A DNA stretch of 4,076 bases from a virus (taxonomy: Duplodnaviria > Heunggongvirae > Uroviricota > Caudoviricetes), in the IMG/VR virus record IMGVR_UViG_2778261064_000018; one strand, given 5' to 3'. The notes under the pieces are model-generated. The model saw only the letters and a list, made by a program, of their open reading frames with translations. It made no database searches and had not been told where the DNA came from. This document shows positions 75-4,076 of the stretch, piece after piece; positions within the stretch are counted from its first letter, which is position 1, and each line of letters starts with the position of its first letter. The position numbers and the translations under genes are program-made.

Positions 75-785
75 TTACACCCTCCCCAGTGCCAGCGGTC
101 TGTTGCTCTGACCATTAACCCCCTGATGCAGCCTGGCGTTTTTCCCGGCGATAAAACCGGCTGTAGCGGCAAACTCTGCACCCCGGCACGCTTTAGCTGT
201 GCGCATATCCCCGTCGCGCAGCCCCTTAGTGCTGTGCAGGTTCTTTCTGTAAAGCTCAAGGCGGCTTTTTTCTTCCGGGGAGACGTCATACACCGCAATG
301 ACATCACGGGCACCAAAGACCCAGCCTTCGCAGAACTGGTCGCCACGGGCCACCCGCGTGGACGGACCACAACGTTTGCAGTGTTTATCCTGATATTTCT
401 TACGCTCTGCCATCATCTGACGGGAAAGCACATCAAACGCGTAAGCCGCGATTTCCGGGCGGCTGTCAGAGCCATAAAAACGCACGTGACGTTTGAGTGA
501 ACCAGAAGCCCGGTACTCGCCGGAGATGTAACACTCGACACCGAAGGCTTTACAGACCAGGTCACACAGGATGTGCATATAACGCGGCGGCGTACTGGCA
601 TCACTCGGCGCACCCGCGCTGGCAGCTTCCTGAATGTCGAACAATTCAGCGTCGTTTTCGCTGATGCCATGCTGGCGCATATAAGCCTGGGCTTTTGCAA
701 TAGCGTTAGCGGCTTCTTCCGGGCTTGATGTCCCTCTGGCAAGGCGTAACAGTTTTTTGATTTTGGCAATGTATTTATCTTTCAT
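75..785 (-). CDS. Conserved prophage early-region protein, DUF2786-like N-terminus (236 aa)
   Basis: Long minus-strand ORF, ATG at 785..783 and TAA at 77..75. The N-terminus MKDKYIAKIKKLLRLARGTSSPEEAANAIAKAQAYM resembles, from memory, the K-I-x-K-L-L-x-L-A / Ala-rich helix signature of DUF2786 prophage proteins. The central part carries several Cys, including a CxxC (HCKRCG). Only a weak Shine-Dalgarno is visible, and the gene starts 14 nt after the stop of the 799..981 ORF. Family name unverified. Confidence 0.8.
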   Translation of the reverse strand: MKDKYIAKIKKLLRLARGTSSPEEAANAIAKAQAYMRQHGISENDAELFDIQEAASAGAPSDASTPPRYMHILCDLVCKAFGVECYISGEYRASGSLKRHVRFYGSDSRPEIAAYAFDVLSRQMMAERKKYQDKHCKRCGPSTRVARGDQFCEGWVFGARDVIAVYDVSPEEKSRLELYRKNLHSTKGLRDGDMRTAKACRGAEFAATAGFIAGKNARLHQGVNGQSNRPLALGRV

Positions 786-798
786 AGTCGTCTGAATC

Positions 799-981
799 TC
801 AGCATCCTGAATTCTGAATTACGCAACTTCCGGTACGGCCTTCAGGAACGTGGGGAGTTCGTTCTGGCTGCGGCGCTGGATGAACATCTGCTGTCGACTG
901 AGAACTGGTCGCAAGACGATTAAAACAAACGATTGTCAGATTAATTTCGCGGGCGAATTTTTTTTGCTTGGCGATATTCAT
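799..981 (-). CDS. Hypothetical small protein (60 aa), coding status uncertain
   Basis: ATG at 981..979 is preceded by GAGGAAG with a 7-nt spacer, and that RBS sits directly 3' of repeat copy 1, the same arrangement as for the 181-aa gene. The C-terminal half (PAPQPERTPHVPEGRTGSC...) looks low-complexity, so this may instead be a leader or regulatory region. Confidence 0.3.
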   Translation of the reverse strand: MNIAKQKKFAREINLTIVCFNRLATSSQSTADVHPAPQPERTPHVPEGRTGSCVIQNSGC

Positions 982-997
982 AAATAAACTTCCTCAG

Positions 998-1055
998 ATT
1001 CAGGCGTAAGCCAGCCCCGGCGGGTTTACGCCATATACAAATAAAATTAAAAACA
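998..1055. repeat. Intergenic direct repeat copy 1 (~58 bp) with embedded imperfect-palindrome hairpin at 1003..1032
   Basis: attcaggcgtaagccagccccggcgggtttacgcc followed by an AT-rich tail ending aaataaaattaaaaaca; near-identical to 1623..1680. The hairpin arms GGCGTAAGCC / GGGTTTACGCC give about 10 paired positions on the DNA. Lies between the 181-aa ORF stop (1062) and the 60-aa ORF start (981). Confidence 0.85.
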
Positions 1056-1061
1056 GACTTA

Positions 1062-1607
1062 TTAACTACGACGTTCAGCTTTCCGGTAATGACGGTCAAC
1101 AGACTTTACGAACGCCTTCACATCACGGGAAATCGAATCCAGCGGATAATATTCATCCAGTAGTTCCATTCCACTGAATCGAATCTGAAAAAAATCAGGC
1201 TTATCTTTATATGACTCCATCAGGTCAATAAACCGCAGCTGACGCGGGAGGGATTCCTGCACGCCTGAAATAGTGAGCAAATCATCTTCAAGGATGTATG
1301 CGAGGTCTTCCATATCCTTACAGTCAGACAGCATGGATATTCTTGTCAGTATGTTCCGTGTGGCGATATACAGCGCGGCTGTGTCATTCGCCATCATGGC
1401 GAACAAATCCCCCTGAATATAAGCCCCCTTACTGGCCATAGCATTCCCGGCAATCTGCGCATCAAGTACCACATGCATAAAATCGGCAGGTGCTCCCAGA
1501 TGGCCCAGCAATGATGACGCCCATAACGTTACATTGGTTAACTTCTCAGATGAACGGGTAGCAAAACCTTCAGGAGTAACAATAAAATCCCAGACTTTAT
1601 CTTTCAT
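1062..1607 (-). CDS. Hypothetical protein (181 aa), no recognisable family; candidate accessory/moron gene
   Basis: Minus-strand ORF with TAA at 1064..1062. The ORF track begins at a TTG (1613), but an in-frame ATG at 1607..1605 is preceded by AAGGGGA with a 7-nt spacer, so 1607 is preferred. Flanked on both sides by the 58-bp repeat and visibly more AT-rich than its neighbours. No catalytic motif recognised. Confidence 0.75.
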   Translation of the reverse strand: MKDKVWDFIVTPEGFATRSSEKLTNVTLWASSLLGHLGAPADFMHVVLDAQIAGNAMASKGAYIQGDLFAMMANDTAALYIATRNILTRISMLSDCKDMEDLAYILEDDLLTISGVQESLPRQLRFIDLMESYKDKPDFFQIRFSGMELLDEYYPLDSISRDVKAFVKSVDRHYRKAERRS

Positions 1608-1622
1608 ATACAAATCCCCTTA

Positions 1623-1680
1623 ATTCAGGCGTAAGCCAGCCCGGCGGGTTTACGCCTGTTTTAAATAACAATTAAAAACA
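1623..1680. repeat. Intergenic direct repeat copy 2 (~58 bp) with embedded hairpin at 1628..1656
   Basis: attcaggcgtaagccagcccggcgggtttacgcc plus tail ...aaataacaattaaaaaca. Differs from copy 1 by a 1-nt C deletion in the loop, a 1-nt indel in the tail and a divergent 6-nt stretch right after the hairpin. Lies between the 63-aa ORF stop (1688) and the 181-aa ORF start. Confidence 0.85.
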
Positions 1681-1687
1681 AATTAAA

Positions 1688-1879
1688 TTAATGCGGTGCT
1701 TTCAGTGTTTCGACTTTAACGAAATAAGGCTCGACATTAATTTCAACCACACAGCCACATTTAAAATCTCTGGCCGGTGCAACAGTTTTTACCACCCGCC
1801 CACCACGCACTGCCCGGTGTGCAATGTGCATGAAACGAGTACCTGGCGGATATAGCTGATTAAAGCGTTTCGCGTTCAT
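1688..1879 (-). CDS. Hypothetical small protein (63 aa)
   Basis: ATG at 1879..1877 with an upstream AAGGATGGAAG purine-rich stretch. Overlaps the 3' end of the upstream gene by about 20 nt, consistent with translational coupling. Stop at 1690..1688, just before repeat copy 2. No family recognised. Confidence 0.45.
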   Translation of the reverse strand: MNAKRFNQLYPPGTRFMHIAHRAVRGGRVVKTVAPARDFKCGCVVEINVEPYFVKVETLKAPH

Positions 1880-2093
1880 GAGGCGGCTTCCATCCTTTCA
1901 GGTGAGCGTTAGCGCAGAACTCCGCACGATGTTCAGCCCAGATGCGGCGCAGGGTGCTACACGGGCTTTGCGCTGCCTTACGCCACAACTTTTCAGCCTC
2001 GGCATAATCGCCGCGTTGTTCTGCTCTGGACGCGCCCAGCGAATACGCCGCGCAACTATTTCCGGCTCTGTACTCTTTGATATCCTGATGCAT
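1860..2093 (-). CDS. Small helical protein (77 aa), possibly ANR-family-like regulator
   Basis: The track ORF (1860..2204) overlaps the upstream gene by over 100 nt. The internal ATG at 2093..2091 lies 1 nt after that gene's TAA (2097..2095) and is preceded by AGGGG with a 6-nt spacer, so it is the preferred start. The product MHQDIKEYRAG...DYAEAEKLWRKAAQ...RRIWAEHRAEFCANAH has a W...W...R...C pattern that I recall, without certainty, from ANR (AraC-negative-regulator) small proteins. Confidence 0.5.
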   Translation of the reverse strand: MHQDIKEYRAGNSCAAYSLGASRAEQRGDYAEAEKLWRKAAQSPCSTLRRIWAEHRAEFCANAHLKGWKPPHERETL

Positions 2094-2094
2094 G

Positions 2095-2739
2095 TTAAAC
2101 CCCTGCAATATCAAGCGGGATTGCGCGGTATTCAGCAGAATCACCGACGCGCTCATACACGCGGATATAGCTTCTGCTGCCAACCACCTGGACGGCTTCA
2201 CCAATCAGTTTCATGGCGTTATCCCAGCGTTCCTCCGTAATATCGAGACGACGCAGAGCCAGAACGCGCCCGGTGTTAATGTTGCCTTCCTTGTCCGTGC
2301 TGAATGCCTCGCTGATGATGGCTTTAATTTCAGGGCGTGCACCTTCCGTCCAGTCAGCCAGACAGTCATCAATCAGCGCCTTCGCGGTCTGAATGCGTTC
2401 ATCAAGCGCGATACGGTCCTGCATGGCGCGCTGAATCTTGTAACGCCCGTCAAAGCTGTAAAGCGTGATATTGCCTTTTTTGCCGCCTTTCACAGCGCCG
2501 TATTTCTCCGCCGACAGGTCAATAAATGCCTGAATATCACCAAACGCACGCAGTTTCAGTTCCCGCAGTGAGGCGGAGGCAGCAATCACCATCTCCACAA
2601 GCTCACCGACCAGCTGCTCGCGGTCGCGGTCGATATCTTTGATAAGGCTTTCAGGTGTCATTACGCCACGGGCATCCACCCAGTAACCTTCAGGCGCTTG
2701 AGTTTTCGTGTATTGCTTAACTTTATTTTCAGTCGTCAT
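2095..2739 (-). CDS. Conserved prophage protein (214 aa), possibly DUF3164-like
   Basis: ATG at 2739..2737 preceded by TAAGGTAA with a 7-nt spacer; TAA at 2097..2095. About 200 aa, acidic, with an N-terminal ...PEGYWVDARG... segment. Size and position downstream of a B-like ATPase fit the DUF3164 family as I remember it from Mu-like prophages; unverified. Confidence 0.8.
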   Translation of the reverse strand: MTTENKVKQYTKTQAPEGYWVDARGVMTPESLIKDIDRDREQLVGELVEMVIAASASLRELKLRAFGDIQAFIDLSAEKYGAVKGGKKGNITLYSFDGRYKIQRAMQDRIALDERIQTAKALIDDCLADWTEGARPEIKAIISEAFSTDKEGNINTGRVLALRRLDITEERWDNAMKLIGEAVQVVGSRSYIRVYERVGDSAEYRAIPLDIAGV

Positions 2740-2768: not shown

Positions 2769-2984
2769 TTAATGTGTGTTATGTGCGCGAGGCGCAACGT
2801 TTTCAGAAAAAATATTCACGCCGTTGTAGTCATTTCTCAGTGCTTCCTTGATAACATCATGTAATCCTGTTGCCACCTGAAACTCCCTTTCGGAAGTGCC
2901 GTCCTTCGAATAACTCCCTGTAATCTGGGTTAAAGTCGCGCCTTTTTCATCGGTATAGATAATTACTTCTAACTTAACCCCCAT
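2769..2984 (-). CDS. Small protein (71 aa), paralog 3 of a tandem small-protein family
   Basis: The track start (3005) lacks an RBS, whereas the internal ATG at 2984..2982 is preceded by AAGGAGA with a 5-nt spacer. N-terminus MGVKLEVIIYTDEKG matches the motif of the 83-aa ORF (MSVKLTIVFTDLGNN). TAA at 2771..2769. Confidence 0.6.
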   Translation of the reverse strand: MGVKLEVIIYTDEKGATLTQITGSYSKDGTSEREFQVATGLHDVIKEALRNDYNGVNIFSENVAPRAHNTH

Positions 2985-3165
2985 GTTTTTCTCCTTTGAA
3001 ATCAAACGATTTAAAAATAATTTCGTTCATAAAACAGTGAGTTTTTCTGATAATGTCGGAAACCTGCTCTCCCGTGACATCAGGCGGCAACTGATACGTC
3101 GCGACGACTTTCTCCGGTTTACCTGGCCTGTCCAGGCTGAAAGTTAATTCAAGCTCTAATGACAT
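2974..3165 (-). CDS. Small protein (63 aa), possible paralog 2 of the tandem family
   Basis: ATG at 3165..3163; the upstream sequence TGAGGGCTGAAAA uses the stop of the preceding gene as part of a GAGG Shine-Dalgarno. N-terminus MSLELELTFSLDRPG is a weaker match to the VKLxIxFTD motif. Overlaps the next gene by 11 nt. Confidence 0.45.
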   Translation of the reverse strand: MSLELELTFSLDRPGKPEKVVATYQLPPDVTGEQVSDIIRKTHCFMNEIIFKSFDFKGEKHGG

Positions 3166-3175
3166 TTTTCAGCCC

Positions 3176-3427
3176 TCAATGCATTTGTGTTTCTTGAGGA
3201 ATATACGGACATCCCTGTGCCAGTTGTTTCACGTAGTCATGGTAGATTTGCAGATCAAGCCGTTCATTTCCGTGTTTCTCCTTCAGAACCGTACAAATAG
3301 CGCCGACAGTCCCCAGAGTTCTTGCCGCTTCTTCGAGTGTGGCATTGTCGCCATTTTCCACCCGAATAAGGTTATGGCACTGGTTATTACCCAGGTCGGT
3401 AAATACTATTGTTAATTTCACGCTCAC
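3176..3427 (-). CDS. Small protein (83 aa), paralog 1 of the tandem family
   Basis: GTG start at 3427..3425 preceded by GAGGAA with a 6-nt spacer; TGA at 3178..3176. N-terminus MSVKLTIVFTDLGNN followed by a D-x-[AT]-x-x-E ... G ... L-[KR] pattern shared with the 71-aa ORF. Confidence 0.6.
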   Translation of the reverse strand: MSVKLTIVFTDLGNNQCHNLIRVENGDNATLEEAARTLGTVGAICTVLKEKHGNERLDLQIYHDYVKQLAQGCPYIPQETQMH

Positions 3428-3442
3428 TTTTAATTCCTCGTT

Positions 3443-3682
3443 TTATTGCCATACGACGGTGCAGCCGTCGATACAGGACGTTTTAACCACGCGGCGCAGG
3501 CCGCTGAATGTCTGAACGATTTCCGTTACCGGCCATACAGGACCACCCACGGGCGGGCAGGCATAAACCACAGGTAAACGGTGATGCTGTCCCGTTACGC
3601 GACCACCGGTGGTGTGGATGGCCACACGGGCACGGGAACGGACGGCGTTAATGGTCTGCTTGTCCATCGTCTTGTTCTCCAT
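3443..3682 (-). CDS. Hypothetical small protein (79 aa), translationally coupled to the upstream ATPase gene
   Basis: ATG at 3682..3680 overlaps the TGA (3684..3682) of the upstream gene in an ATGA arrangement. An alternative start is Met6 (MDKQTINAV...). No family recognised. Confidence 0.55.
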   Translation of the reverse strand: MENKTMDKQTINAVRSRARVAIHTTGGRVTGQHHRLPVVYACPPVGGPVWPVTEIVQTFSGLRRVVKTSCIDGCTVVWQ

Positions 3683-4074
3683 CAGTGAATTAACATTTCT
3701 GCGAATTTATCAATGGCCTGCACACTGACCGGTGCATCGCTGATATCACAAATCCGGTACACACCGCGCGCCAGTTTGAACAGGCGGCGGGCATTACCCA
3801 GTGAGCGTGCGTAGAGCGCCTCGCTGATTTCCGGTTCTGCTGCTTCCGGCATCAGCCCGGTAGCTATCTGGTTAAAATCTTCCTGCGACAGCGTATCGCC
3901 CAGGTTAAGCGCCAGCGCCACACGGCTGTATAACTGGGCGAACTCACCGCGACGTCCCTTGAGGTTAATCAGAAGGCGTGGCATACCCGCCAGGACAATC
4001 CCGATACCCGCTTTGTCATGCAGACGGCGCAGAACCTCCAGTGCGCGATAGGGGAGCAGTTCAGCCTCGTCCAC
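3682..4074 (-). CDS. C-terminal part of an AAA+ transposition-type ATPase (Mu B / TniB / ExeA-like); 5' end lies beyond the window
   Basis: The open frame runs off the right edge, so the Met at 4074 is only an internal residue. The segment ...GIGIVLAGMPRLLINLKGRRGEFAQLYSRVALALNLGDTLSQEDF... matches the h-h-G-x-P-x-L...L...QL-SR...L pattern found C-terminal to the Walker B region in Mu B / TniB / ExeA-type ATPases, recalled from memory. Stop TGA at 3684..3682. Confidence 0.6.
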   Translation of the reverse strand: MDEAELLPYRALEVLRRLHDKAGIGIVLAGMPRLLINLKGRRGEFAQLYSRVALALNLGDTLSQEDFNQIATGLMPEAAEPEISEALYARSLGNARRLFKLARGVYRICDISDAPVSVQAIDKFAEMLIH

Positions 4075-4076
4075 CA

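Follow-up and report, generated by a model that had tools for sequence, protein, structure and literature searches.

A probable Mu-like transposable prophage of Escherichia coli behind a viral early-region sequence that ends within a B-like ATPase gene

The window analysed here, a 4,076-nt stretch of Caudoviricetes DNA (IMG/VR record IMGVR_UViG_2778261064_000018), breaks off at its right edge inside a reading frame for an ATPase, and this raises the question of which machinery the ATPase serves and what kind of element continues beyond the break. In the ORF listing, the edge ORF occupies positions 3682-4074 on the minus strand, encodes 130 aa and ends in a TGA stop codon at 3682-3684. Since only two bases are left past it, the ORF is open at the window edge and cut by it, not started there. 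The fragment opens with VDEAELL, a Walker B motif. Searched alone, it matches the generic Pfam family AAA_22 below the cut-off (E 4.5e-4, 21 bits against 27 bits), and no other Pfam match was found. From this fragment and the small genes that follow it, the initial annotation had proposed a Mu B/TniB-type ATPase in the early region of a Mu-like transposable phage. The evidence in the window fragment alone is slim; the call was nonetheless right.

The prophage around the window

By megablast, the window matched 58 E. coli genomes, among which eight bovine isolates from Okinawa matched at 99.9%. Compared with E. coli OkiPb01701, three of the 4,076 bases differ (positions 1988, 2001 and 2016), all of them synonymous and all in one gene. 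The same search against 50,697 phage records gave no match, and relatives were reached only by protein-level search; the window lineage is without a close cultured representative among these records. We infer the transposase and host junction context of the window from OkiPb01701, given these three differences, and from about 70 related loci.

In the OkiPb01701 genome, a CDS of 297 aa contains the edge ORF as its final 130 residues; RefSeq names the product only 'AAA family ATPase'. The window span 3682-4076 corresponds to residues 168-297 of this protein, and the 5' 501 nt of the gene lie beyond the window. A gene for a 680-aa 'Mu transposase C-terminal domain-containing protein' ends 18 bp upstream of the ATPase gene and occupies window-equivalent positions 4594-6636 on the minus strand, which places a DDE transposase with Mu-type domains past position 4074, where one had been expected. 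Upstream of the transposase gene lies a gene for an 89-aa winged-HTH protein (HTH_35, SfsB/Ner-like), followed by a divergently transcribed gene for a 223-aa repressor of the HTH_3/CI type and then by truncated fliH; the repressor and ner-like genes had likewise been anticipated. The phage end is at window-equivalent position 8066, 3,990 bp past the window edge, and the junction with the host is in fliH, in keeping with the earlier expectation of a phage end to the right. The prophage splits fliH, has a full length of 36,895 bp, and retains both ends together with intact A, B, repressor and late-module genes.

Downstream of the window, the RefSeq annotation of OkiPb01701 lists GemA/gp16, Mor, holins, endolysin, terminase, a DUF935 portal, head morphogenesis proteins, virion morphogenesis protein G, a protease, a Mu gpT-type major head protein, a tail sheath, a tape measure, a 'DNA circularization protein' (N), baseplate proteins and fibres, after which the other half of fliH follows. 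The Mor protein of the prophage matches phrog_836 (4.4e-42). A Mu-type regulatory module and a contractile-tail virion module are present in a prophage near-identical to the window, and the transposase, the Ner-like protein, the repressor and the Mu-type late module bear out the proposed Mu-like transposable phage. The annotation of this prophage lists neither gam nor mom nor an invertase gene, and a tblastn search of the whole 36.9-kb element with Mu early proteins (with Gam among the queries, and Com, Mom and Gin outside the set) returned only Ner, A and B, plus the N-terminus of Mu c within A. Based on these results, the window very probably lies midway in the early operon of an E. coli prophage of the Mu-like transposable kind, 36.9 kb in length, and the edge ORF is very probably the 3' part of its B gene.

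All genes downstream of the ATPase in the window are on the same strand as the ATPase gene. The window is 92.6% coding, the gaps range from -20 to +80 nt, and all eleven ORFs are intact. From the right edge leftwards, the features are as follows.

3682..4076, minus strand: B-like AAA+ ATPase, 3' part, with the Walker B motif, the EFAQLYSRVA segment and a predicted C-terminal helical lid
3443..3682, minus strand: Kil-like gene, 79 aa; phrog_2679 'Kil protein for bacterial septation inhibition', 1.2e-37
3176..3427, minus strand: small early ORF, 83 aa; phrog_35084, 2.8e-60; variably present in relatives
2974..3165, minus strand: small early ORF, 63 aa; phrog_38867, 6.1e-47
2769..2984, minus strand: small early ORF, 71 aa; phrog_7438, 3.3e-48; annotated in OkiPb01701
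2095..2739, minus strand: DUF3164 gene, 214 aa; PF11363, 9e-79; phrog_846, 8.2e-91
1860..2093, minus strand: ANR-family small regulator, 77 aa; NF033650, 1e-15 (above cut-off); phrog_2227
1688..1879, minus strand: small early ORF, 63 aa; phrog_5591, 1.4e-40; conserved across genera
1620..1664, minus strand: first copy of a hairpin-forming repeat; lies in an 80-nt interval on the upstream side of the 181-aa ORF
1062..1607, minus strand: accessory ORF, 181 aa; phrog_7741, 3.9e-122; found in only some relatives and flanked by the two hairpin repeats
998..1053, minus strand: second copy of the hairpin-forming repeat; lies in an 80-nt interval on the downstream side of the 181-aa ORF
799..981, minus strand: hypothetical ORF, 60 aa; annotated in OkiPb01701; no family match
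75..785, minus strand: DUF2786 + DUF7168 gene, 236 aa; PF10979, 5.2e-13; PF23771, 3.5e-29; phrog_421; a conserved early-region gene

The ATG of the Kil-like gene overlaps the stop codon of the B gene as ATGA, and the start given in RefSeq is the ATG at 3667; its similarity to Mu Kil is a short local match confined to the last 25 residues. The 63-aa ORF at 2974..3165 is unannotated in the OkiPb01701 record and annotated in other strains. The initial annotation had described small early genes and a DUF3164-like gene behind the ATPase in the same orientation, and the DUF3164 match of the gene at 2095-2739 agrees with this description. The DUF3164 gene, a conserved marker of the early region, follows B in 40 of 42 viral loci and in most of the genome loci. 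An Rfam scan of the window at E <= 1 gave one sub-threshold chance match. Promoter and terminator scans of the window found no more sites than in shuffled sequence, and no convincing internal promoter or terminator was seen.

The arrangement extends well beyond E. coli. In the IMG/VR set, 42 contigs encode a relative of the ATPase, and the order Ner-A-B-(Kil)-...-DUF3164-(ANR)-63-aa ORF-(DUF2786)-...-Mor is kept in 40 of them, the other two being short fragments. In species-representative genomes, the transposase gene lies directly upstream of B at 20 of 24 loci; two of the remaining four have no upstream sequence, and two are metagenome-assembled genomes (Ignavibacteriaceae, Balneola) in which no transposase was detectable by the query used. 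Relatives of the ATPase occur in Edwardsiella, Cedecea, Kluyvera, Serratia, Mixta, Erwinia, Pantoea, Sodalis, Izhakiella, Wohlfahrtiimonas and Actinobacillus, and the transposase-then-B order is also found in seven E. coli prophage copies. The genes between B and Mor, on the other hand, vary among relatives: the 83-aa, 63-aa, 181-aa and 60-aa ORFs are each present or absent depending on the relative, and DUF7448 or Ea22-like genes occupy this interval in other strains. Because of this variation, the earlier reading of the window as a semi-essential early region that gathers accessory genes is borne out. The promoter of the early operon presumably lies between the Ner-like gene and the divergent repressor gene, and a transcript starting there would run through A and B, cross the entire window and reach Mor. 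On this view, the genes behind B, which make up the variable early region known in Mu as 'semi-essential', share a single transcription unit of closely spaced genes with A and B.

Insertion sites, termini and target duplication

Six independent insertions of closely related copies, with both ends readable, were located in fliH, a P2-like prophage tail gene, scpC, a PAAR toxin gene, the yjiL-yjiK interval and the dtpB-uspA interval. All six have the same termini, 5'-TGTGGGGTAG...GAAGTTACA-3' (TGTGGGG...GTTACA, of the TG...CA type). Each phage end contains three ATTCTGGG-type repeats, and the outermost pair is inverted and placed 16 nt from each terminus. The presence of closely related copies at six insertion sites indicates recent mobility.

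The one expectation that failed concerns the target duplication. A 5-bp duplication had been predicted from the likeness to Mu, whereas a 4-bp direct repeat flanks all six insertions (ATTG, GATG, TATC, AGTA, CATA and CGGT). The empty fliH and scpC sites of K-12 agree, as they contain exactly four bases between the unique flanks. A 5-bp duplication with termini shifted by one base was considered for the window lineage and rejected: the fifth bases mismatch in most insertions, and the K-12 sites give only 4 bp. The copy in strain C5 was left out of this count because ISEc12 interrupts its right end. As a control, true Mu prophages in E. coli A20 and UMNF18 were treated by the same procedure and gave 5 bp (ACCAC and GGGAA); strain UMNF18 harbours both phage types.

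Sp18-type prophages also make a 4-bp duplication, in four of four insertions, with termini of the TG...TA type. An alternative placement of the Sp18 ends, TGAATC...GAACA with a 5-bp CCAGG repeat, was rejected as a chance 7-base identity between phage and host. The intact sorM gene of another O157 strain gave the true Sp18 junctions, with a 4-bp TAAA duplication, and three more Sp18-type insertions agree. The Sp18 feature annotation of the Sakai genome is off by 1 and 5 bases relative to the ends defined here.

Some of the E. coli prophages examined encode proteins with WP_0129046xx accessions, which, from the accession numbering, we presume to originate from Citrobacter rodentium. The Mu-like prophages CRP28, CRP99 and CRP49 of C. 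rodentium ICC168 were shown experimentally to transpose to many sites, and the repeats at the insertion sites were given as '3-7 bp', with no defined length (PMC3072379). For Mu the duplication is 5 bp and for B3 6 bp, and '5/6 bp' together with TG...CA ends has been used as a recognition scar (2021 paper from a laboratory working on transposable phages, PMC8705779). No report of a 4-bp duplication in Mu-like phages was found in the searchable literature, and the chance that the 4-bp scar is new to the literature is about even. Prophage delimitation by a 5- or 6-bp scar will misplace the ends of the 4-bp clade.

These insertions also bear on the most serious alternative, namely, that the ORF does encode a Mu B homologue but that the source prophage is a decaying, immobile remnant whose ATPase has no current function. 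Some copies are indeed damaged: that of STEC308 is internally deleted to 22 kb, and that of strain C5 carries IS3 and ISEc12 insertions. The eight OkiPb strains, moreover, share one insertion position, which is consistent with vertical inheritance. However, the eleven window ORFs are all intact, none of the three differences from OkiPb01701 alters a protein, and the OkiPb01701 copy is complete in length, ends and A, B, repressor and late-module genes; the six insertion sites among relatives point in the same direction. A remnant is therefore an improbable source, and the window is better understood as part of an intact transposable prophage.

The ATPase and its partner transposase

The full 297-aa ATPase provides what the fragment could not. 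In Pfam, it matches AAA_22 (8.9e-23) and TniB (PF05621, 3.5e-7, 30.3 bits against a 22.4-bit cut-off), and it matches phrog_296 'DNA transposition protein' over its whole length (8.7e-105), the same profile that Mu B matches with 9.9e-118. Among PDB sequences (phmmer), the best match is the Mu 'ATP-dependent target DNA activator B' (8xvb, 2.5e-18, residues 17-237); the next matches are TnsC proteins, which are far weaker (E 0.025). By BLASTP, the ATPase and Mu B are 33% identical over 214 aa (E 8e-22, ATPase residues 17-220). The Walker A motif GAAGLGKT at residues 98-105 aligns with GNPGVGKT of Mu B, and the Walker B motif VDEAE at residues 168-172 aligns with IIDEAD. The EFAQLYSRVA segment is conserved, its EFA-L-SR-A residues aligning with Mu B.

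An AlphaFold model built with 14 homologues has a mean pLDDT of 83.7. When this model was compared with the PDB by Foldseek, the top match was the ATP-DNA-MuB filament (8xvb_A, E 2.1e-11, TM 0.80 on the target, 239 aligned columns); ShCAST TnsC ranked second, and clamp-loader and ORC AAA+ proteins were far behind. At the N-terminus, HTH_31 matches with 6e-5, below the Pfam cut-off (23.7 against 27 bits); the model has three short helices predicted at residues 3-36, and the alignment to Mu B starts only at residue 17/20. Judged from these sequence comparisons, the ATPase is homologous to Mu B and, more distantly, at the superfamily level, to TniB/TnsC. The naming of the edge ORF as the C-terminal part of a Mu B/TniB-type ATPase thus held for the full protein.

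The TniB match above its cut-off and the rank of ShCAST TnsC as second-best structural match would also suit a TniB/TnsC-type ATPase of a non-phage transposon (Tn5053- or Tn7-like). TnsC of the type V-K CAST and Tn7 systems and TniB of Tn5053 do fall, together with the ATPase, into one AAA+ clade of ATPases that select targets for transposition. They differ, however, in their non-phage context and in their TniQ/TnsD or Cas12k target selectors, which are absent here: no TniQ/TnsD-type target selector or resolvase is annotated in the 36.9-kb element, which instead has a complete set of myovirus structural genes along with Mor, a lysis cassette and a switch made of repressor and Ner. Together with the MuB match of 2.5e-18 against 0.025 for TnsC, this makes a non-phage transposon very unlikely.

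ExeA/GspA proteins carry a peptidoglycan-binding domain C-terminal to AAA_22 and are encoded among type II secretion genes, and the initial annotation had named such an ATPase, with no transposase or phage genes nearby, as the outcome that would overturn its reading. The likeness to ExeA/GspA is limited to the AAA_22 part; no secretion genes are near the ATPase gene in OkiPb01701, and both the transposase and phage genes are adjacent to it. A non-transposition AAA_22 ATPase of this or another kind (a housekeeping or defence NTPase) with incidental small-gene neighbours would fit the generic, sub-threshold match of the fragment and the bare RefSeq name, but it is hardly credible for a 297-aa protein that has a possible N-terminal HTH, in which the Pfam search found no peptidoglycan-binding or membrane domain, which resembles MuB most closely and TnsC next in both sequence and fold, and whose gene lies 18 bp from a DDE transposase gene in a complete phage genome, in an order conserved in dozens of loci.

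As the B protein of a Mu-like phage, the ATPase may be expected to act as its counterparts do. By analogy with Mu B and TnsC/TniB, ATP-bound B would polymerise on non-specific DNA, and the coated DNA would be handed as target to the transpososome, which the upstream DDE transposase would build as a tetramer on the phage ends. B would also stimulate strand transfer. Near the phage ends, B would be stripped off by the transposase, which would confer target immunity and prevent self-insertion.

The partner transposase is recognizably of the Mu type, but not closely related to Mu A. In Pfam, the OkiPb01701 protein matches Mu-transpos_C (7.2e-17) and HTH_Tnp_Mu_1 (8.8e-8), both above the cut-offs, and rve weakly; it belongs to phrog_310 (4e-194), the family that also contains Mu A. 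No match to the Mu DDE_2 and I-gamma Pfam domains was found. Its DDE residues are D308, D374 and E414, of which the two aspartates align with D269 and D336 of Mu A; identity to Mu A is about 29%, only over 85 aa around the first two catalytic aspartates. The spacing from the second aspartate to the glutamate is 40 residues, compared with 56 in Mu A (D336, E392), and the region of the glutamate aligns best with retroviral integrases. The Sp18 transposase is far closer than Mu A, at 44% identity over 645 aa.

A divergent B protein and the relatives of the prophage

In many respects the ATPase corresponds to Mu B: both have the AAA+ core with Walker A and B motifs and membership in phrog_296, and they may share an N-terminal HTH-like region, matched here below the cut-off; Mu B is the best structural match, and both genes stand directly after the transposase gene and directly before a Kil or Kil-like gene. 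They differ in length (312 aa in Mu B, 297 aa here), in the partner, which here is not of the Mu DDE_2 type, and in the C-terminus, where PF09077 (Phage-MuB_C) is found in Mu B only. Neither the fragment nor the full ATPase matched PF09077 at E 0.01, whereas the positive controls, Mu B and Sp18 B, matched with 4.9e-34 and 2.5e-25, respectively; PF09077 was also undetected in the 64%-identical Klebsiella homologue of the ATPase. The last 88 residues gave no PDB sequence match even at E 10, and after about residue 237, no sequence similarity to Mu B was detectable. In the AlphaFold model, residues 231-296 form a C-terminal helical lid. Given the lack of a PF09077 or PDB match, the last 60-75 or so of the 130 window residues are Mu B-like only in position and in the predicted helical lid. 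By its sequence, the ATPase is placed here within the Mu B family as a divergent protein, one of the defining sequence signatures being absent.

Two relatives place this divergence. The Klebsiella phage ST405-OXA48phi1.1 (MK388859) encodes a B protein that is 64% identical, likewise 297 aa long, with HTH and AAA_22/TniB matches and no PF09077. This phage and related Salmonella, Yersinia and Edwardsiella prophages share the order transposase-ATPase-small ORFs-DUF3164. Its transposase, however, is only 46% identical, and no nucleotide-level match to the window exists in the phage collection. The other relative is the Mu-like prophage Sp18 of E. coli O157:H7 Sakai, described as intact and packaged and as occupying different sites in different O157 strains (PMC2669165, PMC7430833). 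It resembles the window prophage in its transposase, its Mu-like virion module, Mor and the 4-bp duplication, but its B protein, which is 48% identical to Mu B and has PF09077, is only 32% identical to the B of the window. Sp18 also differs in having Gam, Com/Mom and an invertase, in lacking DUF3164 and ANR, and in its TG...TA termini, compared with TG...CA here.

The above comparisons raise the possibility of a widespread enterobacterial Mu-like clade, to which the window prophage and the long-known Sp18 would belong, in which an integrase-like, rve-type A protein cuts the target with a 4-bp stagger in place of the 5 bp of Mu or the 6 bp of B3, and in which the sub-lineage of the window has exchanged the MuB C-terminal domain for an unrelated sequence; we regard this proposal as evenly poised between being right and being wrong.

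The finding of a phage B gene is in itself ordinary, and relatives are already in RefSeq under generic names. It does illustrate that 130 residues of an ATPase, taken together with DUF3164, can be enough for a careful reader to spot the early region of a transposable phage. The side observations, that is, the 4-bp duplication common to the window prophage and Sp18 and a B protein without the C-terminal signature of Mu B, outweigh the ATPase in interest. They reveal, within one host species, natural pairs of Mu-type transposase and B that differ in stagger (4 versus 5 bp) and in the C-terminus of B, and such pairs offer a comparative handle on the spacing of target cuts by the transpososome and on the communication between B and A.

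Target duplication and termini of the prophage lineage

In the Mu-like prophage lineage that contains the window, a target duplication of 4 bp was found in all six independent insertions (6/6), read at the OkiPb01701 junctions and in stretches L005, L006, L009, L010 and L011. The identical procedure, applied as a control, gave 5 bp for both true Mu prophages (n=2). The lineage differs from Mu, with 5 bp, and from B3, with 6 bp (PMC8705779). Sp18-type prophages, named after the Mu-like prophage of E. coli O157:H7 Sakai, likewise carry 4-bp duplications (TAAA, TAAG, GATA and TGGA; further insertions in L057, L058 and L059), and their termini are TG...TA, as against TG...CA. The Sp18 feature of the Sakai record (L013 2472-41230) lies 1 and 5 bases away from the ends found here.

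L001 28067-28070 and L002 9618-9621: OkiPb01701 junctions with the target duplication
L013 2471 and 41225: ends of Sakai Sp18

Repressor, accessory genes and ATPase relatives

Across the whole 36.9-kb prophage (L001 1-28066 and L002), no Gam, Com/Mom or invertase gene was detectable, by tblastn with Mu early proteins (Gam included) and, for gam, mom and the invertase, by annotation. The DUF3164 gene of the lineage occupies approximately the position of gam in Mu. In addition, the repressor of the window-type prophage is a CI/HTH_3-type protein unrelated to Mu c, whereas the N-terminal domain of Mu c resembles the N-terminus of the lineage's transposase (37% over 63 aa).

L001 26454-26633: transposase N-terminus similar to Mu c

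Relatives of the ATPase, at 33-43% identity, are present in Ignavibacteriaceae and Balneola MAGs (L077 and L084); with the lineage's transposase A as the query, no transposase was detected upstream of them in these two stretches.

Small genes and hairpin repeats of the early operon

An ANR-family gene lies within the phage early operon and is kept in many relatives. Members of the ANR family are small regulators that repress virulence activators of the AraC type. All three differences between the window and OkiPb01701 sit in this gene, and every one is synonymous. A 63-aa ORF, annotated in UMNF18 and TUM1881, is left without annotation in the OkiPb01701 RefSeq record.

window 1860-2093: ANR-family gene
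window 2974-3165: 63-aa ORF, strong PHROG match (6e-47)

A hairpin-forming sequence, GGCGTAAACCCGCCGGG(G)CTGGCTTACGCC on the coding strand with an AT-rich flank, occurs twice in the window (998-1053 and 1620-1677). The only two 80-nt intergenic gaps in the window each hold one copy, and the copies flank on both sides the accessory 181-aa ORF, which is found in some relatives and missing from others. No third copy was found in the sequence stretches examined, the prophage included, and a comparison with Rfam gave no match. The repeat could mark the edge of a cassette or function in the processing or stability of RNA.

Host strains and decay

UMNF18 carries a true Mu-type (L061 199-31012) and a window-type prophage (L005 3158-40243) in one strain. 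The former is 30.8 kb long, with a 5-bp duplication and several late genes truncated or frameshifted, and the latter, with a 4-bp duplication, is inserted in the tail region of a P2-like prophage. Some window-type copies are decaying: the STEC308 copy (L010 2477-24711) has lost approximately 15 kb of tail and head genes, and that of strain C5 contains two insertion elements, an IS3 and an ISEc12 (L012 24567-25781 and 40130-42432), the latter severing the right end. In all eight OkiPb strains, fliH is split by the prophage (L001 28068-28415 and L002 9618-9965), and because of this interruption these bovine isolates are probably non-motile.
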